Shown here: positions 1 to 11,315 of the stretch, piece after piece
Numbering within the stretch: position 1 is the stretch's first letter
Layout of the letters: every line of letters begins with the position of its first letter
Source: Candidatus Eiseniibacteriota bacterium
Lineage (GTDB): Bacteria > Eisenbacteria > RBG-16-71-46
Assembly (NCBI GenBank): GCA_963717935.1
Contig: CAVQXP010000001.1
Coordinates: 181,714-245,713, forward strand
Length of the DNA stretch: 64,000 nucleotides
Direction: 5' to 3'
Program-made: the position numbers and the translations under genes
The notes under the pieces: model-generated
Told to the model about the DNA's origin: nothing
The model's database searches: none
What the model saw: the letters and a program-made list of their open reading frames with translations, nothing else

Positions 1-214
1 CGTCGCGCACAACACGCGCATGGGCGTGATCCTGTTCGTCGTGTACGTGCTGTTCTACGGAGGGTTCATGGCCCTGAGCGCCTTCTGGCCGGAGATCATG
101 AGCAAGCCGTTCCTGCGCGGGGTGAACCTCGCCGTCGTGTACGGTTTCGCGCTGATCGTGGCCGCGCTCGTGCTGGCGCTGGTCTACATGAAGACCTGCC
201 GCAAGTCGGCATAG
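1..214 (+). CDS. DUF485 (YjcH-like) small membrane protein, 5'-truncated by the window edge
   Basis: Two hydrophobic helices with F/Y-rich start and G-V-N-L-A-V-V-Y-G; directly upstream of actP, the usual position of this family; frame is open to the window edge. Confidence 0.8.
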   Translation, partial: VAHNTRMGVILFVVYVLFYGGFMALSAFWPEIMSKPFLRGVNLAVVYGFALIVAALVLALVYMKTCRKSA

Positions 215-224
215 GGAGACCCCC

Positions 225-2157
225 ATGATTCACGCTACCTCCTGGATCGCCGTCCTGGTCTTCCTGTTCTTCGCCGGTGCCGTCCTGGCCATCAGCTTCT
301 ACCTGGGGGCCCGGGCCAAGTCGGCCAGCGGCTACTTCGCGGCCGGCGGCGGCATCCACTGGGCGGTCAACGGCATCGCGTTCGCCGGCGACTACCTCTC
401 GGCGGCCTCGTTCCTCGGCATCTGCGGCATGATCGCCTTCTTCGGCTACGACGGTTTCCTGTATTCCATCGGTTATCTCGCCGGCTGGATCGTGGCGCTC
501 TTCATCATCGCCGAGCCGCTCAAGCGGCTGGGCCGTTTCACGTTCGCCGACGCCCTCGACAACAAATTCAACTCCCGCGGCATCAAGCTGGCGGCGGCCA
601 TCAGCACGCTGGTGGTGAGCTGCTTCTACCTGATTCCGCAGATGGTCGGAGCCGGCGCGCTGGTGCAGCCGCTGCTGGGGTTCCCGCACTACGTCGGGGT
701 GATCGTGGTGGGCCTGATCGTGACCACGATCGTCACCACGGCGGGCATGGTCTCGACCACCTGGGTCCAGTTCATCAAGGGGACCATCCTGGTGCTGTTG
801 TGCGCGTTCATCACCGTGCTGCTCCTCATGCGGGGCGTGACCACGAAACCCACGGATGCCAACGGCAACGAGGTGCGCATCCTGAAGCGGGGCGTGCCGA
901 CCGCGGAAGTCATCGGCGCCCCGGGGGCCACCGTCCTGCCCGAGGAGGGCGCGTGGAAGGACAGGCCCTACCTGCGCGTCCAGACTCCGACGGGCGCCGT
1001 GTCCGTCTGGCACAAGGACGGCGACCTGCTGTCCGAGGCGCAGACCCTCACCGTGCGGAAGGACGGCAGGAAGCTCGTCAACGGATTGCCGCGGGGCAAG
1101 AACGAGGGCGAAGCAGACCTCGCGCCGGTGGGCTACGCCTCGAAGCTGCCGGGCGGGGTGGAGCGCACCGGGCCGCAGAGCCCGTTCGGGTTCCTGCGCA
1201 CCATGCAGGAGAGCGAGGTCATCCTCTGGGGCTCGGAGAAGATCGCCGAGGCAGACGGCAGCGCCACGACGGTGTACTACCAGAAGCCCACCGCGGGCGC
1301 CGACTTCATGGCCCCCGGCTCCAGCCCGACGTTCAAGAAGGTCCGCAGCAAGAAGCTGTTCGACAAGCTCGACTTCCTGTCCCTCATGCTCGCGCTCTTC
1401 TGCGGCACGGCGTCGCTGCCGCACATCCTGATCCGCTACTACACGGTCAAGGACCAGATCAGCGCCCGCAAGAGCACCGTGGTGGGCATCGCGGCCATCG
1501 GGTTCTTCTACGTGCTGACGCTCTTCCTGGGCCTGGGCGCGATGACCAGCGGGAGCCTCGACGTCACCGACTCGAACATGTCCGCGCCGCTGCTGGCGCG
1601 CAGCCTGAACGAGCTCCTCTTCGCGGTGCTCTCGGCCGTGGCCTTCACCACGGTGCTGGGCACGGTCAGCGGCCTGATCATGGCCGCGAGCGGCGCGGTC
1701 GCCCATGACCTCATGACCAACTTCATGAAGATGAAGCTGGACGAGTTCCAGAAGGTGCGCGCCGCCAAGATCGCCGCCGTGTGCGTCGGTCTGCGTGGCG
1801 ATCTGCCTGGGCATCCTGTTCGCCAAGATGAACGTCAACTTCCTGGTCGGCTGGGCCTTCAACATCGCCGCCTCGGCCAACCTGCCGGCGCTCGTCATGC
1901 TCCTCTTCTGGAAACGCACGACCAAGCAGGGCATCACGGCCGCCATCGTGGTGGGCATGATCTCCTCGCTGGCCTGGATCCTCCTGAGCGCACAGGCCTA
2001 CAAGGACGTGTACGGGCTGGATCCGGCGCTGGCCATCGTGCCCTTCAGCCAGCCGGCGATCGTCACCATCCCGCTGGGCTTCCTGGTCCTGGTCCTCGTC
2101 TCACTGATGACGCCGCGCCCGGAGGAGCCGAGCAGGGCCGTGCCCAGTCCAGCCTGA
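225..2157 (+). CDS. actP: Cation/acetate symporter (sodium:solute symporter family); one frameshift near 1795
   Basis: Motifs NGIAFAGDYLSAASFLG, YLIPQMVGAG, GTASLPHILIRYYTV; C-terminus (AFNIAASANLP) continues in ORF 1795..2157. Confidence 0.88.
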
Positions 2158-2384
2158 CGTTCGCCTCAGGGCGGAGGCGCAGACACTCCCTCCCGGGAGG
2201 ATTTCACAGCGGGGATCGCACGGGCGTTTCGTCCCACGGAAACGCCCGTGCGAGGAGCGCGTGGGCGCCGGCTCCCTCGCTGCCCGGCACCGGTCGCCAT
2301 CTCCGCGGCGGGCATGTTCAGGCCGACAGCGTGCCCCCGAGCACCATCACGGCCACCGTCTCGCGGGCTGCGCGGGGTGGGGGC

Positions 2385-3209
2385 TCAGCGGGCCCCATCG
2401 ACCTGCACATCCCCCGCGACATCCGGCGCGCTCGGATCGGCGGGGCACAGCAGGAGCTTCTTCTCCTCGGTATCCCAGATCACGAGGGTACGAAGGGGCG
2501 AGTCGAGGTCGTCGCTGACGCACACGAAGCGGGTGCCTTCCACGGTGGCCTGGTGCGCGCGATGGAAATGGCCGAAGACCCAGGCCCGCGGCTTGTAGGC
2601 GAGATCGAGCCACAGCCAGCCCAGTTCCACCTCACCGCAGTCATCCTCCGGCCCGGGATCGAAGCCCACCGCCGTGATGTGCTCCGCGACGCCGGGCTGC
2701 ATCTCGGCAGAGCTCCGGATCCCGATGCCGATCCGCGAAGGGCAGGAATGAGTGACGATGAGTTCGGGCCGCTCGCGGTTGAACAACGCGGCGGCGTGTT
2801 CCCGCTGGCGGCGCAGGATGTAGTTGGGGAAGCCGCTGAACAGGTTGTGCCGCTGGGGCCGGTCCACGTGCAGGGCGCCGCCCAGGAAACCGACTCTGGA
2901 GCCGCCGAAGACGGCCACGGACGGGCGCGGCTGATAGATGAGATTGCTCTCCTTCTGCCAGCTCCTCGCCATGCCGAGCAGGAGCGCGCGGCGCAGCCAC
3001 GGATGATCCTCGTGGTTGCCGTCGATGACGTGCAGCGGGACGGGGTAGCGGAGTCGCTCCTCGCGGGCCTGCATCATCAGGTCCCGGTAGAACCCGAAGT
3101 CGCCCACCTGGATCGCGGCCGCGATCCTGAAGTCGGTCTGGGCCTGCCGCAGGCCCTCGACCACCTTCCGGTGCTGGCCATGCACGTCGCCGACGATCAG
3201 GACACGCAT
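2385..3209 (-). CDS. Calcineurin-like metallophosphoesterase
   Basis: GDVHG, VGDFG, DGNHED, THSCP and FGHFH metal-binding motifs. Confidence 0.9.
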   Translation of the reverse strand: MRVLIVGDVHGQHRKVVEGLRQAQTDFRIAAAIQVGDFGFYRDLMMQAREERLRYPVPLHVIDGNHEDHPWLRRALLLGMARSWQKESNLIYQPRPSVAVFGGSRVGFLGGALHVDRPQRHNLFSGFPNYILRRQREHAAALFNRERPELIVTHSCPSRIGIGIRSSAEMQPGVAEHITAVGFDPGPEDDCGEVELGWLWLDLAYKPRAWVFGHFHRAHQATVEGTRFVCVSDDLDSPLRTLVIWDTEEKKLLLCPADPSAPDVAGDVQVDGAR

Positions 3210-3213
3210 GCGC

Positions 3214-5742
3214 TCAGGCGGTCCGGGCGAAGTCCGTCTGCAGACGAGCCTGGAAGACGGTGATGTCCGCGAAGACCTTCTTCAGCACCGAGCGCTCGAG
3301 ATGGGTCAACTCCTGCAGCTCGATGAAGTTGTCCGGCTCGGCGCCCCGACCGATCTGCGCGGCCTGGTGCGTGAGCCGCATCTGCATCAGGGCGGTGTAG
3401 GCCTGCGCCAGCTCGTCGTGGCTGGAGGGCAGCAGCAGGCCCTGGTCGCGCAGCCGGCGCAGCCGCTCGATGGTGTTGGTCTCCGCGAAGCGGTTCTGCA
3501 AGGCATACATCCGCGCGAAGTTCACCAGCGGGATGATCGCCGCCTTCACGTTGAACGCCGCCGGATGCTCAGCCGGACGATTCGAGCTGGATGTTCCCGA
3601 AGAACCCGCGCGGGGCCCTGAACTGCAGCGTGCTCTGCGCCAGGTGGAAGAAGAAGGAGTTCTTGTCCTCGCCTTCCAGCAGGTGGTGCAGGTGCTCTCG
3701 CAGCTGCCGCACGTACTCGGCCTCCCCGTACGCGCAACGAAAGTCGAAGAACACGTTCACGTCCAGCAGGTCCTGGGGCCGGGCCGCGGTCACGCACTCG
3801 GTGAAATACCGCCGCCATCGCGACAGGGGCTGGCACCATTTCTCGGTTGCAGGCCATGACCTCGCCCTTGCAGCGCCGGTAGCCGACGAGATCCAGCCAG
3901 CCGCACACCTTTTCGCCGAGCCGCAGGAAATGGGCCTGCACCGCCTCGTTCTCTTCCGGAGCGACGTCGGCGTAGATGATGGCGTTGTCCTGGTCGGTGG
4001 CCAGGGTCTGTTCCTCCCGCGCCTCGCTGCCCAGGACCACAAAGGCGAACGCGGCCGGCGGCGGTCCGAGTTCGGCCTCGGCCAGCGCGATCAGCCGCAC
4101 CAGGATCGCGTCCGACACCGTCGTCATGATCCGGGTGACGCTTTCCACCCGCGCGCCGCTTTCCAGCAGCGCCTTGACGAACACCGGCAGCTTGGCGCGG
4201 CTGTCGCGCAACTCCTCGGGCGACCGGGCCTCCTGGATCTCACCGAGCAGAGCGCCGATCGCGTGGCGCTGCGTGTGGAGGATCTCCGTGCCCGTGAGGA
4301 TCCCGCGCGTGGCGCCGCGTTCGTCGGTCACGACCAGGTGCTGCACGCTCCGCTCCTGCATGACGCGCGCGGCTTCGAACAGCAGGGCGCGGTCCTCGAT
4401 GCGGACCAGAGGGGCGCTCATGACGGTGGCGACGGGCTCGGTCGCGGGCCGCCCCGCCGCCAGCACCCGGTTGCGCAGATCCTGGTCGGTCACGATGCCG
4501 ATCGGCTCCCCGGCGGGGGACTGGACGAGGATGGCGCTGGACTTCGCCCGAGCCATGGCGACGGCGGCCTTGTGGATCGGCGTGTCCAGGTCACAGGTGG
4601 CCAGCGTCAGCGGTGAGGCCTTGATGGACCGCGTGGCCAGCGGCAGCATGCTCTGCAGATCGGCCACCAGGCGGGCGAGGGTCTCCTCGGTCTTCTTGCG
4701 GGCCGCGACGTCCTTGACGGACAGGATCTGCCCCGCCTTGTCACCGATCGTCACCGGGGCGGCTGTGAGCAGCACGTCCACGGCCTCGCCGTTGCTTGTT
4801 GAGGATCCTCGCGCGCCGTTCTGTCGCCGGCGCCGAGGGGTCGCCGTTGGGGACCGACTCCATGATCTTCTCCAACGGCACCTGGACCAGTTCCTCCTCC
4901 GTGTAGCCCAGCCGGCCGAGCAGCGTCTTGTTCGCGTACACCGGGCGGTCCTGCAGCACCAGCAGGACCCCCTCGGTCGTCCCTTCCACCAGCAACCGGT
5001 ACTTCTCCTCCGATTCGCGCAGCGCCGTTTCCGCGCGCCAGCGCTGGCGCTCGAGGTTGAGTCCCTGCTGGGTGATGTAGGCCAGCAGCGCGGCGATGAT
5101 GATGGAGATGCCCACCGAGATCTGAAGGACGCGGCGGATCATCTGGCTGATCTCAGCCCACACGTCTTCGAGGTAGATGCCGGTTCCCACGATCCAGCCC
5201 CAGGGCGCGAAGCCTTTCACGTAGGACAGCTTGGGCACCACGCGTTTCTCGTCGTCCTTCCATTGCCACAGGTAGTCCACGTAGCCGTCGCCCCTGGCCC
5301 GGACCACCTTGGTGAACTCGACGAACAGCCTCTTCCCCGCCGGATCGGAATACTCGAGGAGACTCTGGCCGTTCAACTCCGGGCGGTAGGGATGCATGAC
5401 CATGCACGTCTGCGTGTCGGAGATCCAGAAGTAGTCCTTGCCGTCATCCCCGTAGCGCATGTTCTGGATCCGGGCGATGGCGGCCTGCTGGGCCGCGGCC
5501 CGCGAGAGCGCACCCTGCCTTTCCTGTTCATGCAGGCCCGCCAACTCGCTCCAGGCGGCTTGCGTCAACTCGCGAATCATCTCCTTCTTCCGCTCGATGA
5601 TGTTCTTCTTCATCGTCGGGATGATGACCACGAAGATCAGGCCGAAGAACAGCGCAAAGGTCAGAATGGCCGGCGAGATGATGTTGACGGCGAAATGCCG
5701 CCAATGGGGCCGGGGCGGTTGCCGAAGGTCAGCGGTGGGCAT
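3214..5742 (-). CDS. Membrane sensor fusion: TM-sCache_2-TM-PAS-CBS pair-DUF294 nucleotidyltransferase-DUF294_C; frameshifts near 4790, 3845 and 3570
   Basis: Cache motifs YFWISD..MVMHPYRPELNG and PKLSYVKGFAPWGWIVGTGIY; LRESEEKYRLLVE PAS linker; CBS motif GIVTDQDLRNRV; NTase motif GSEAREEQTLATDQDN; DUF294_C FFDFR and IIPLVNFARMYAL; assembled from ORFs 4741..5757, 3546..4781, 3569..4042 and 3214..3549. Confidence 0.8.
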
Positions 5743-6132
5743 GAGTGGGAACCACACTAAGGGCTCGCGGCCCGGCGGGCCAGCCTGCCGCCGGCGACGG
5801 CCGGCACAGGGCCCGCGCGCGGTCCGATCGCGGCCTGGCCGGACCCCGGGGGGCGACCTCGAGGATCGTTGTGAGCGTCGTCATGTGAGCGTCCACGTTC
5901 GTCCATCTCCGTCCATAGACACGAAGCACCCCGAGGATACATAAGTCCTTGGGCCGCATGCCATCTCGTTCTCGCGATGTCCGCTCGCTTCGCGTCATGT
6001 CGCTGATTTCGGTCCCCGCCCCGCGTGAGGAAACCGCTGTTCCATCCTTCCGAGTCATGGGCACGCTCTGTGGCCCGGCATCCGGCCGCGCAGTTGGCGC
6101 GCGACGGGCTCGCGCTCGAGGATCTCCGGTTC

Positions 6133-7215: not shown

Positions 7216-7324
7216 GTCATCTCCCCATGCAAGAGACCAGAGGACGCCGGACCGCAGGGTCCACTCGCCATGAACCCGGCGGTCCGGCGCCCGGGATGCA
7301 CCACTCCATCGACCCCACCGGCCC

Positions 7325-7714
7325 TCATCCCGCCCCGCGGCTCATCATCACCAGCGCCGCGCCGGTGAAGTAGGCCACCACCCAGTAGGCGTAGGCGAGC
7401 CGCGAATAGAGGTGCAGGCGCTTCCCGAGCAACTCCGCGCCCGCGCCGAGCCGGTGGCGCCACATCAGGAACGTGTCGGTCGCCATGGCGGCCAGCGCCG
7501 AGTATCCCAGCGCGCCGTGCAGGCTCAGACCCTCGCGTTGCGTGGCGAGAATCATGAGCAGCGTGGCGGTCATGTCGAAGGCCACCCCTGCGCTGAAGGC
7601 ACCGCACACGCCACGGGTGGCGCGGCGGGCACGCAACTCCTTCACCGCGCCGATGGTGTAGAGCACGAGCGCCGCGGTGACGGTGGTCACCGCGGCCATG
7701 CGCAGTGGCGTCAC
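7325..7714 (-). CDS. Small four-helix membrane protein (HsmA/TIGR03987-like)
   Basis: ALVLYTIG, G..FD.TAT..M, SLHG.LG..AL..M and W...Y.TG pattern. Confidence 0.6.
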   Translation of the reverse strand: MTPLRMAAVTTVTAALVLYTIGAVKELRARRATRGVCGAFSAGVAFDMTATLLMILATQREGLSLHGALGYSALAAMATDTFLMWRHRLGAGAELLGKRLHLYSRLAYAYWVVAYFTGAALVMMSRGAG

Positions 7715-7811
7715 GCGGTCCTCCCTCGACGCAAGCCCACTCCTCTGCCCGGAGCCGTGGCGGTCCTCCCGGTCCGTGAACGCGACCGGACCCCGGCCCG
7801 GAGCCCCCTCC

Positions 7812-8625: not shown

Positions 8626-9591
8626 TCAGCCGGCGGCGGCCGGCTCCGGCCAGGCGAATTCGCCCGCCGGCGGCCCCGAACCGCGATCGAGCAGATGACA
8701 ACCGAAGAACGCCAGGACGTGGCGTTCGTATTCCGCCGGGTGGCGCCTCCAACCCTCGTTGTGGCCTGCGTCGGGGATGATCCACAGGGGATCCTTCGCC
8801 CCGGCCGCGCGCCACAGGCGGCGGGCGTTCTCGCTCGAGAGGCGGTCGTCCTCGAGCGCGTGGATGAGGAACAGCGGCCGGCCGGCGAGCCGGGCCGCCG
8901 CGGACTCGACGTCCACCTCGCCCAGATCGCGGCCCGTCAGCAGGCGGCTCAGCGCCCGCGCGAGATGGGCGCTGCGGCGGGGCAGGCGCGCCCAGCGCTG
9001 CGAGGAGTCTTCCAGCGCGAGCGTGGCGTGAGCGAAGGCGCCGTCCGCGACGACCGCGCGGACCTCCGGGTTCTCCGCCGCGACCAGCAGCGCCACCGAG
9101 CCGCCGAGCGACTCGCCCAGCAGGCCTACGGCGTGGCCGCCCAGCGACGGTTCCGCGCGCAGCCAGTCGAGCGCGGCCTGCGCGTCCACCACCTCGTGGT
9201 GCCCGAGCGTGGTGGGCCGCCGCCGGCGCCAGCGCGAGGAGCGGAAGTCCACGGCGAACACGCCGTACCCGGCCGCGTGGAGGAACGCGCCATAGCGCCA
9301 GGCGCGCGAGTGCTCGCGGCCGTAGCCATGCAGCACGAGGACCACCGCGCGCTCGCGCGCGGGGAGCAGCCAGCCGTCGAGCGCGTCATCCCCATCCAGC
9401 GGGACGCGGACGCGCTGCGCCACGCGGTCGAGGTCGGGGGCGCCACCCAGGTCGCGGGGCAGGAAGGGAAAGAAGCCGAGCCACACGGCCCCGCCCAGGA
9501 GCAGGGCCGCGGCCGCGAACACCGCCGCCACCACACCGCCCGCGACGAGCGCGTCGCCCGCCGCAAGCACCAGCTCGCTCACGATCACCAT
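8626..9591 (-). CDS. Membrane-anchored alpha/beta hydrolase
   Basis: N-terminal TM helix, LHGYG, GESLGG nucleophile elbow, HALEDD, AGHNE. Confidence 0.85.
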   Translation of the reverse strand: MVIVSELVLAAGDALVAGGVVAAVFAAAALLLGGAVWLGFFPFLPRDLGGAPDLDRVAQRVRVPLDGDDALDGWLLPARERAVVLVLHGYGREHSRAWRYGAFLHAAGYGVFAVDFRSSRWRRRRPTTLGHHEVVDAQAALDWLRAEPSLGGHAVGLLGESLGGSVALLVAAENPEVRAVVADGAFAHATLALEDSSQRWARLPRRSAHLARALSRLLTGRDLGEVDVESAAARLAGRPLFLIHALEDDRLSSENARRLWRAAGAKDPLWIIPDAGHNEGWRRHPAEYERHVLAFFGCHLLDRGSGPPAGEFAWPEPAAAG

Positions 9592-9668
9592 GCCGCGGAC
9601 TATCGCACCGCAGCGAAGAGGCGGGCAAACCCCGCCCGGCGCGGCGGGCGGGTGACGAAGGCTGCGCC

Positions 9669-11315
9669 TCAGTCGACGCTGGCCAGGTCCTCGACGAACG
9701 CCGCGGCCGACAGGGCACCGCCGGTCGCCCGGTGCAGGGTCTCCCGCCAGTCGAGTGTCCGGCCCCCCCGGTAGAGCCGCTCGACCAGGAAGGCCCCGAC
9801 GTCGGGGCTCGTCACGTAGCGCTCCCCCACACCGGGCCCGCCACCCAGCAGCACGCGCCGCAGGTGGGCCTGGAGCTGCGAAGCCATCATCTCGCCGAGC
9901 ATGTAGTTGTGGTAGTAGACCGGCGCGGTGCTGAAGTGGACCTTGCTCGCCCAGTCGGGCGAGCGGCGTCCCGCGGGGCGCCTGACGAGCTGGTAGCGCT
10001 CGACCAGGTCCCACCACAGAGAGTCCAGGTCCTGCCCGGGATCACGGTACAGGGCCCGTTCCATGTGGCACATCACCAGCATCCAGCGCGTCTGCACCAG
10101 CAACTGGTCGCGGGAGGCCCGCGCGCAGGCGGCACCCGCCGCGCGGGCCTCGTCCGCCGGCACCCCGGCATGGTGCTCGAGCCAGGCGGCATCCTTCGGG
10201 AGGCGCCCGAACAGCATCGCACTCGCCTCGGTCGTGAGGATGTGCGCGGGCTCGCGCAGGACGAACGGCAGCGCCCGGTCGATGTGCCGGTCGTAGACCG
10301 CGTGCCCGAACTCGTGCAGCAGGGTGCCCATCCAGTACTGCGTGGGCCTCAGGTTGCACAGCACCCGGATGTCGTCGCCGCGGTCCATGCACATGCAGAA
10401 GGCGTGCTGGCTCTTGCCCGGCCGCTCGTAGAGGTCGGCCCGCGCCAGCAGGTCGCGCACGTCGAGTCCCACGGCCTCGAAGGAGCGCACGAGCATCTCC
10501 TCGAGCGGGCGGCCGGCGAAGTGGCGGTCGAGATCGAGCTCCAGGGCCGGTGCCTCCTGGAAGAACGGATCGGCGCAGTGCCAGGGCCGCAGCTCCGCGG
10601 GCGCGACGCCGAAACGGACCGCGAGGCGGGCGTCGAGGCCGCGCTTGTAGACTTCGAAGAGCGGGCGGGTGCCGCGCTCGAGCTCGTCCAGCAGGCCGAA
10701 GAGCCCCGCCTCGTCCAGCTCATCGAGGGTCAGGCGCATCGTGTAGTAGTTGTCGAAACCCAGAGAGCGGGCGGCCTCGTTCCGCAGCCGCACCAACTCG
10801 AGCAGGTCGGGCGCCACCTCGGTGCCGATCTGCTTCGCGGCCTCCCAGGCGCGGCGGCGCGCGGCGGAGTCTTCCGATTCGATCAGCACGCGCCGAAGGT
10901 CGTTGTCGAGGACACGCCGGCCGTCCAGTTCGGCGCGGAAGGCGTTGAAACGGCTCTCGAGCTGCTTTTCCAGCCGCACCAGCCGCGCGATCATCGCAGG
11001 CTCGAGCTGCTGGCCCCGGTACGAGTTCAGCAGGAGCGTGAGCTGGCGCGCCAGGAGCGGGTCCTCGGCCCCCCCCGCGGCGGCCAGGGCGCGAAGCGAT
11101 TCGTACTCGTCGGAACGCGAGAAGACGGTACGGATCTCCGTATCGAGCCGCGCCGCCTCCTCCTCCGCGGACGGATCGCCGGTGACGCTCGCCTGCCAGT
11201 AGGCAAGGCTGTGCCGCAGATGGAGCGGCTCGATCTCGGCGACCAATCGGCCGATGGCCACCGAGAGGGCCTGCTCGCGCTCCTCGACGGTGGTCTTCGC
11301 GGTCTCCACGCGCAC
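9669..11315 (-). CDS. Zinc metallopeptidase, M3/M2-like (oligoendopeptidase/peptidyl-dipeptidase)
   Basis: HEFGH zinc motif, TEASAM, HF.TAPVYYHNY. Confidence 0.88.
   Translation of the reverse strand: MRVETAKTTVEEREQALSVAIGRLVAEIEPLHLRHSLAYWQASVTGDPSAEEEAARLDTEIRTVFSRSDEYESLRALAAAGGAEDPLLARQLTLLLNSYRGQQLEPAMIARLVRLEKQLESRFNAFRAELDGRRVLDNDLRRVLIESEDSAARRRAWEAAKQIGTEVAPDLLELVRLRNEAARSLGFDNYYTMRLTLDELDEAGLFGLLDELERGTRPLFEVYKRGLDARLAVRFGVAPAELRPWHCADPFFQEAPALELDLDRHFAGRPLEEMLVRSFEAVGLDVRDLLARADLYERPGKSQHAFCMCMDRGDDIRVLCNLRPTQYWMGTLLHEFGHAVYDRHIDRALPFVLREPAHILTTEASAMLFGRLPKDAAWLEHHAGVPADEARAAGAACARASRDQLLVQTRWMLVMCHMERALYRDPGQDLDSLWWDLVERYQLVRRPAGRRSPDWASKVHFSTAPVYYHNYMLGEMMASQLQAHLRRVLLGGGPGVGERYVTSPDVGAFLVERLYRGGRTLDWRETLHRATGGALSAAAFVEDLASVD

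Follow-up and report, generated by a model that had tools for sequence, protein, structure and literature searches.

A Cache-domain receptor with a nucleotidyltransferase output and an exchangeable phosphoesterase partner: a candidate reversible switch for carboxylate uptake

The closest described relatives of the locus treated here are soluble COG2905-type nucleotidyltransferases of pseudomonads and their partner exonucleases, which are known from genetics (here and below, statements from the literature refer to the available parts of the papers cited). Pflu5625 of P. fluorescens belongs to the CrbS/R regulon and showed no acetate phenotype (PMC5715377). On pyruvate, P. putida mutants of pp_0353 (exonuclease) and actP-I grow poorly, whereas a pp_0354 (transferase) mutant is unaffected (PMC9927547). 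Loss of yjcH likewise impairs growth on pyruvate, and the preprint reporting this suggests protein modification for PP_0353/PP_0354, left untested there, and calls their 'function unclear' (10.64898/2026.09.07.749794). In two more species, cofitness links DUF4212 subunits to an RNase T-domain gene located nearby (Price et al., 10.1101/072470). The C-terminal part of these transferases, DUF294_C, has been classed with GlnD, GlnE and DrrA (PMC3710099), and the GlnE domains and DrrA all act on protein tyrosine-AMP (PMC12409994). Here we analyze a 64,000-nucleotide stretch of Candidatus Eiseniibacteriota bacterium (GCA_963717935.1, contig CAVQXP010000001.1, positions 181,714 to 245,713; the window), which begins with a four-gene block encoding a membrane receptor with a DUF294 output, a phosphoesterase, a transporter and a small DUF485 subunit.

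On the minus strand, four frame segments from 5742 to 3214 carry the full domain order of the receptor (TM, transmembrane helix):

3214..5742, minus strand: receptor nucleotidyltransferase gene, about 841 aa when intact; TM1-sCache_2-TM2-coiled helix-PAS-CBS pair-DUF294-DUF294_C; three extra bases
5134..5598, minus strand: extracytoplasmic sCache_2 domain; Y104, W106, H117, F140, Y157, W159 and K171 present
3984..4034, minus strand: polymerase-beta catalytic motif G-S-x-x-R-x-E-x5-D-Q-D-N

Pfam recognised sCache_2 (E 4e-41, residues 49-203), CBS (E 4e-14), DUF294 (E 1e-37) and DUF294_C (E 7e-34). The sCache_2 match (PF17200) scored 140.9 bits against a cut-off of 25 and is framed by the hydrophobic helices TM1 (residues 26-44) and TM2 (205-223). 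The PAS domain is weak in the window receptor (Pfam E 0.002, under cut-off), and in an intact relative it exceeds the cut-off of the NCBIfam model sensory_box (E 2e-9). Domain order and coordinates agree with a preliminary description of this DNA made from the sequence, as does its view of a single fused gene of about 840 codons interrupted by three indels. Among 19 close loci, the gene forms one complete frame (about 840 codons) in 14, is cut by a contig end in 4 and is frameshifted in 1, and sCache_2, DUF294 and DUF294_C stand in one chain in 120/120 homologues among the matches listed. Separate genes instead of a fusion were ruled out by these intact frames and homologues.

The catalytic aspartates D583 and D585 of the intact GS..R.EQ...TDQDN motif pointed out earlier are present in 150/150 representatives, and D666 in 149/150. 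An AlphaFold model of the intact relative P0001 (mean predicted local distance difference test 89.6, predicted template modelling score 0.56) matched two GlnE domains best (Z 27.8 and 26.2), followed by DrrA (Z 25.4), in agreement with the GlnD/GlnE-like nature ascribed to DUF294 before. Cache and transferase are combined in at least 149 clusters (50% identity) among the best 150 matches. The receptor family is real, widespread and uncharacterised.

At the sensory end, the nearest structures to the sCache_2 domain are 4K08 (Adeh_3718, E 9e-38) and PscD (5G4Y, E 2e-32). The sensor model superposes on acetate-type 4K08 with a root-mean-square deviation (rmsd) of 1.0 Å, and a model of the sensor kinase MctS matches the same region (E 1e-25). 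Seven propionate-contact residues have been defined in PscD, which binds C2-C3 carboxylates at 23-356 µM (PMC5062169). These contacts, Y90, W92, H103, F126, Y143, W145 and K156, correspond to Y104, W106, H117, F140, Y157, W159 and K171 of the receptor (7/7 identical), and Y104, H117 and K171 are kept in 148-149/150 representatives. Acetate-like acids are the predicted ligands of the outer domain, in line with the carboxylate-type pocket suggested before. The CBS pair, for which a reading of adenylate charge had been proposed, is not supported as an essential part: it was undetected by profile in 15/150 representatives, and a minimal 619-aa receptor (L156:1067-2926) joins Cache directly to the transferase without PAS or CBS while retaining the same phosphoesterase clade and the DUF485-SSS genes. 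PAS and CBS are therefore optional in the family, and so is energy sensing. In a quick DUF294 tree, one row of the type with a cyclic-nucleotide-binding (cNMP) domain nests among the Cache forms; the tree is unrooted with 25/68 forks open, so no direction of evolution is claimed, neither the replacement of a cNMP input by Cache suggested before nor the reverse.

The preliminary description had the receptor convergent with DUF485-actP. The convergent pair is there on the plus strand, but a gene overlooked at the time lies in between:

2385..3209, minus strand: calcineurin-like metallophosphoesterase, the candidate eraser; 274 aa; PF00149 E 4e-9; starts 4 nt past the receptor stop

The encoded protein has no membrane helix, and its metal ligands D8, H10, D37, N65, H66, H154, H214 and H216 (DxH, GD, GNH, H, GHxH pattern) are invariant in 24 rows. 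A single-sequence search of the PDB gave no match; a profile search found the phosphodiesterase Dbr1 as the nearest solved relative (profile E 7e-10; Z 17.6, rmsd 3.0 over 223 residues). The gene lies downstream of the receptor in 17 of the 18 close loci having downstream DNA. In the phylum of genome G175, its profile matched 7/301 genomes, always 0.6-1.0 kb behind that genome's DUF294 match; two of these seven had contributed to the profile. The locus had been called a one-component system. One fused receptor is indeed present, but it is not alone, as a dedicated phosphoesterase is its tightest partner.

Across the family this position is occupied by different folds. Of the best 150 clusters, an N-terminal PHP domain was found in 36 and a DEDDh domain in 2 (own profiles; Pfam run on 25); an AP_endonuc_2 barrel occurs in one, and a DUF6915-like domain, with an atlas score of 0.96 and no Pfam hit, in another. 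In a metagenome set of 79 loci, Cache and transferase share a single frame in 65. A recognised phosphoesterase was fused to the receptor or within 400 bp in 54 of these, two at once in none, and comprised 33 calcineurin-like proteins (three clades), 11 PHP, 6 barrel and 4 DEDDh; the profiles were built from the same loci and are in that sense circular, with representatives checked by Pfam. The other 11 include two cut PHP remnants, a fourth calcineurin-like clade, a fused DUF6915-like domain, a receptor beside a second, DUF6915-fused one, two loci with short flanks and four with no visible eraser. Two further locus sets were chosen by DUF294 alone, which avoids the circularity. In the window's phylum, DUF294 matched 18/172 genomes, of which three weak matches (G013, G016, G059) and one cut locus were left out; a phosphoesterase and an SSS transporter gene were found at 14/14 assessable loci (7 cNMP+DEDDh, 6 Cache+PHP and the window locus). 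In a second phylum, 40 loci comprised 35 with a recognised phosphoesterase, 4 with a fused DUF6915-like domain and 1 with none. The loci counted are kin, not independent. Since the window's own 3.0 Mb genome contains only 11 matches to the four Pfam phosphoesterase folds, chance adjacency would be about 1%, assuming ~2,700 genes. On a quick unrooted transferase tree (71 rows, two short rows dropped), the eraser label changes at least 21 times, the minimum being 11.

Taken together, the partner slot of the transferase is filled, one occupant per locus, by the unrelated calcineurin-like, PHP, DEDDh and endonuclease-IV-like barrel folds, which points to a writer/eraser pair. The role of the barrel is the least sure, because the AP_endonuc_2 family also includes sugar isomerases. 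A DUF6915-like domain is probably a fifth filler. It is fused to the N-terminus of the receptor in P0259, L094, L095, L104, L160, L164, L174 and L175, shows six histidines and three aspartates conserved across 7 rows, and was never seen together with another eraser at the loci surveyed; from the invariant residues and this mutual absence we infer a new phosphoesterase. A literature search found no paper on DUF6915. As separate observations, three adjacent DUF294 genes at L104:4780-12148 encode a 629-aa soluble, an 830-aa Cache and an 888-aa DUF6915-Cache type, and L145:4386-7013 joins a soluble cNMP-CBS-DUF294 protein and an RNase_T exonuclease in one frame.

Removal of a nucleotide from a protein by such enzymes is chemically feasible: a DEDDh nuclease cuts the aryl ester of thymidine monophosphate (PMC6768110) and the metallophosphoesterase PptH removes a phosphodiester-linked tag from proteins (PMC8557913). 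The same exchange of folds bears on a different, rather unlikely explanation, in which the transporter or a regulator is gated by a small nucleotide messenger, such as a linear dinucleotide, with the transferase as its source and the phosphoesterase as the enzyme that destroys it. At least four unrelated hydrolase folds in one slot speak for it, as do the likeness of the phosphoesterase to Dbr1 and to cyclic-nucleotide phosphodiesterases such as Rv0805, the cNMP-binding domain of the canonical forms and Crp-like genes near 6 loci. Yet the nearest solved folds of the transferase modify proteins, and no cGAS/DncV-like or cyclase structure stood in the top structural-match rows, where absence is weak evidence; DEDDh enzymes, which require a free end, would not cut a cyclic product, and no messenger-receptor gene travels in the block. 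Action of the pair on RNA ends, with nucleotides added to or trimmed from the transporter mRNA or a small RNA to control expression, is improbable. It has been proposed already (PMC9927547; 10.1101/072470). Each of the DEDDh, PHP, Mre11-like and endonuclease-IV folds has 3'-5' nucleases among its members, as this explanation would have it, and Dbr1 is an RNA enzyme; however, the transferase resembles GlnE and DrrA in fold rather than CCA-adding or poly(A) enzymes, the architecture has no RNA-binding domain, and DUF294_C lacks the HEPN RNase motif (PMC3710099).

The remaining parts of the block are the transporter genes and their surroundings ((.), no strand):

1..214, plus strand: DUF485 (YjcH-like) small membrane subunit, 89 aa; first ~19 codons upstream of the window; PF04341 E 2e-11; full frame L024:15659-15928
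225..2157, plus strand: SSS-family ActP/MctC-like carboxylate transporter; PF00474; one extra base at ~1795; 643 aa in relatives
2216..2253, (.): perfect 15-bp inverted repeat with an 8-nt loop between the convergent gene pairs (L024 17930-17967), a possible terminator
1..6132, (.): whole four-gene block, an insertion of ~6.3 kb between a bacterial microcompartment (BMC) shell gene, which ends 217 nt before the window, and an M29 peptidase gene

The transporter had been named actP. It is ActP/MctC-like, with an SSF domain and an upstream DUF485 gene in the ActP-like SSS arrangement, but an intact relative scored under every cut-off (MctC 418/670, ActP 398/750, TIGR02711 334/1099 bits). The NCBIfam match is split because the protein carries a hydrophilic insertion of ~180 aa (window ~830-1380), which is absent from classical ActP and marks a ~640-aa subfamily common beside these receptors. 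A subunit role for DUF485 has been described (10.1101/072470). The proposed proximity of the homologues to SSS transporters was borne out, with an SSS gene at 19/23 metagenome loci with 4 kb flanks, at all 14 assessable loci of the window's phylum and at 11/14 Cache-type loci of the second phylum. Around some loci other genes were seen: L056, L068 and L121 have a second Cache-containing gene and a sigma54 response regulator beside the receptor, and two of them also a GPR1/FUN34/SatP acetate channel gene. In L005, L011, L034, L035 and ~20 metagenome loci the transporter operon is flanked by genes for unrelated outer-membrane porins (DcaP, Porin_O_P, BBP2-like); no such gene lies inside the block of the window.

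In G004, a complete genome from the same genus, an empty site of 85 nt separates the flanking genes, compared with ~6.3 kb in the window genome; genome G006 has 1.1 kb only at the corresponding place. The GC content of the block is 67% against 70-75% in the flank, the window receptor shares up to 90% identity with copies in Verrucomicrobiota, and receptor matches occurred in only 4/41 genomes of the class (others 34-48%). The empty site, the lower GC content, the identity to Verrucomicrobiota and the rarity in the class show that DUF485, transporter, phosphoesterase and receptor arrived together by horizontal insertion. Neither a target-site duplication nor a terminal repeat was apparent at the borders of the insertion. 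The transferred block contains no other candidate target; if it was functional on arrival, the target would lie inside the block or be universal. In a plasmid search, 0/72,556 plasmids covered 80% of the receptor and 41 held the CBS-transferase part only, and PADLOC 2023 (a dated library) gave 0 defence-model matches for 5 proteins. The BMC shell gene of the left flank (L024:14865-15497) is CcmP-like (251 bits, cut-off 340), was present in all five same-genus genomes searched and is unlinked to the block in relatives.

The three frame changes of the receptor are single extra bases at ~4791-4794, 3843 and 3571, as judged against five relatives (81-92% DNA identity), and the same comparison placed a fourth in the transporter gene at ~1795. 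In short-read contigs of close strains the extra base is absent at 1794/1795, 3571 and 3843/3844; this comparison does not extend to ~4794 and, as no run was shown to be of the window strain, is not true polishing. A search of sequencing runs returned no run containing half of the stretch and no reads of the window strain; the small shares present in runs say nothing about habitat, and the two RNA runs compared consist of contigs and are no sign of expression. Host genes near the block also carry lone indels. The four breaks are most likely assembly errors. A separate question from the mechanism is whether, within a real family, the copy of the window strain is a recent pseudogene with four genuine extra bases. 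Four frameshifts within 5.7 kb in two genes of a recently acquired block and the lack of a run of the strain would fit this, but every break is a +1 base, no stop codons occur, the codon differences from L067 are 95 synonymous and 70 non-synonymous, nearby host genes have their lone indels and the contig has further assembly faults, so we regard a pseudogene as improbable. Two host genes (L024 ~7266-7808 and ~9581-10853; FKBP-like and aminopeptidase-like by eye) appear frameshifted, consistent with assembly indels. Elsewhere in the window, from ~40,900 to 64,000, the GC content drops sharply from ~71% to ~33% and stays low through the contig end, with genes resembling those of another organism; this tail is a probable chimeric contig end. 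Contig C3 likewise terminates at 42-47% GC.

For the function of the block we favor, at a probability of roughly 45%, an inhibitory and reversible nucleoside monophosphate (NMP) tag on the transporter complex, which the receptor would write in response to a carboxylate and the phosphoesterase would remove. The four genes would together switch carboxylate uptake on and off reversibly: the outer domain of the receptor would bind an acetate-like acid, upon which the GlnE/DrrA-like domain inside the cell would modify the transporter or its small subunit with a nucleotide, presumably at a Tyr, Ser or Thr, and the neighboring phosphoesterase would take this nucleotide off again, keeping the transporter on. 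PAS and CBS may tune the writer, although they are optional. We lean slightly towards a writer that is turned on when acid is in excess and then shuts a scavenging transporter, by analogy with GlnK, which shuts AmtB. The published P. putida mutants fit an inhibitory tag when read by analogy, because loss of the exonuclease mimics loss of ActP on pyruvate and loss of the transferase does not.

Several observations weigh against this assignment. On propionate, both pp_0353 and pp_0354 mutants are impaired, while those of actP-I and yjcH are not (10.64898/2026.09.07.749794), which points to a target other than the transporter. For the soluble genes, Price et al. guessed a role in expression (10.1101/072470), and the Pseudomonas authors proposed one at the RNA or expression level (PMC9927547). 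Soluble cNMP-CBS-DUF294 genes had been said to flank actP commonly. In the second phylum an SSS gene lay within the fetched ~6 kb at only 1/25 soluble cNMP-type loci, against 11/14 of the Cache type; linkage to the transporter is often absent in soluble forms. Among 48 aligned transporters, which fall into three subfamilies with differing tails, a search for the acceptor found no cytoplasmic tyrosine specific to the linked ones. No eraser was seen at the flanked metagenome loci L061, L073, L092 and L110, nor at L012 and L172. That unrelated hydrolase folds replace one another freely would be at least equally expected for a small soluble substrate, and a literature search of incomplete coverage, which may have missed a prior mention, found no biochemistry, adduct or target for any DUF294 protein, COG2905 members included. 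On the acceptor side, all 35 DUF485 rows share a tyrosine that ends the second helix and may be structural. A complex prediction of the transporter with transferase residues 497-841 of an intact relative scored 0.23 against a mark of 0.32; it counts as 'no answer' and was not used as evidence.

The propionate phenotypes raise the less probable alternative that the same writer/eraser cycle acts on another protein, such as a conserved metabolic enzyme (e.g. acetyl-CoA synthetase), a regulator or the receptor itself. Linkage to the eraser is tighter than that to the transporter, and Acs, Crp-like and sigma54 regulator genes occur near some loci, which would agree with such a target. However, the block that crossed phyla consists of four genes only, loss of the exonuclease mimics loss of the transporter (pyruvate and cofitness data), and no soluble neighbor is conserved beyond a few loci. 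In its wider form, the tag on the transporter would make these proteins receptor nucleotidyltransferases that turn an outside carboxylate into a reversible NMP tag with erasers from five unrelated folds, DUF6915 being a new metal-dependent phosphoesterase and the DEDDh, PHP and calcineurin-like enzymes new protein de-nucleotidylases; this remains tentative, somewhat short of even odds. If true, bacterial membrane receptors would have protein nucleotidylation as an output beside kinases, cyclases and chemotaxis domains, carboxylate transporters would be gated post-translationally, and the ActP-linked COG2905/exonuclease pair of Pseudomonas and other proteobacteria would be explained. The receptor form offers a defined ligand for switching the enzyme, and the writer/eraser logic makes the PP_0353/PP_0354 puzzle testable in one step.

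Among known systems, the CBS pair, DUF294, DUF294_C, the catalytic motif and a partner phosphoesterase are shared with the COG2905 type (P. putida PP_0354/PP_0353, P. fluorescens Pflu5625), as is the link to DUF485-ActP and carboxylate use. The COG2905 type, however, has a soluble cNMP domain as input and a DEDDh (RNase_T) partner, whereas the window receptor has a membrane-spanning sCache_2 with PAS, no PF00027 match, and a calcineurin-like PF00149 partner; the sole PF00929 match of its own genome lies on a different contig. By its lack of a cNMP domain and a DEDDh partner the receptor is outside COG2905, though kin in its CBS-DUF294 part. GlnE, GlnD and DrrA share the two-part catalytic fold (polymerase-beta plus helical C-terminal part, Z 25-28) and the G-S/G-x11-D-x-D motif, and in GlnE and GlnD writing is paired with erasing (PMC12409994). 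They differ in being soluble, in having no Cache input, at 12-14% identity, and in their targets PII, glutamine synthetase and Rab1, none of whose genes travels with the window block. The eraser of GlnD is an HD domain. Dbr1 and PptH share fold and metal ligands with the eraser candidate (Z 17.6 and 12.5); at 16-19% identity their substrates are not transferable. The sCache_2 sensors Adeh_3718 (4K08), PscD, McpP and MctS are the nearest to the receptor at the input, where the pocket residues are identical to those of PscD, but their outputs are chemotaxis or histidine-kinase domains. A Cache census lists two Vibrio rows 'Cache_2~PAS_9~DUF294~DUF294_C' scored 'No_output' (PMC4822843, supplementary file 12), and the main-text passages searched do not discuss them; these rows have no CBS, and their Cache at 175-335 matches the DUF6915-fused members by length only. 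To these systems the present locus adds a four-gene transfer unit, a dedicated Dbr1-like partner and the prediction for DUF6915.

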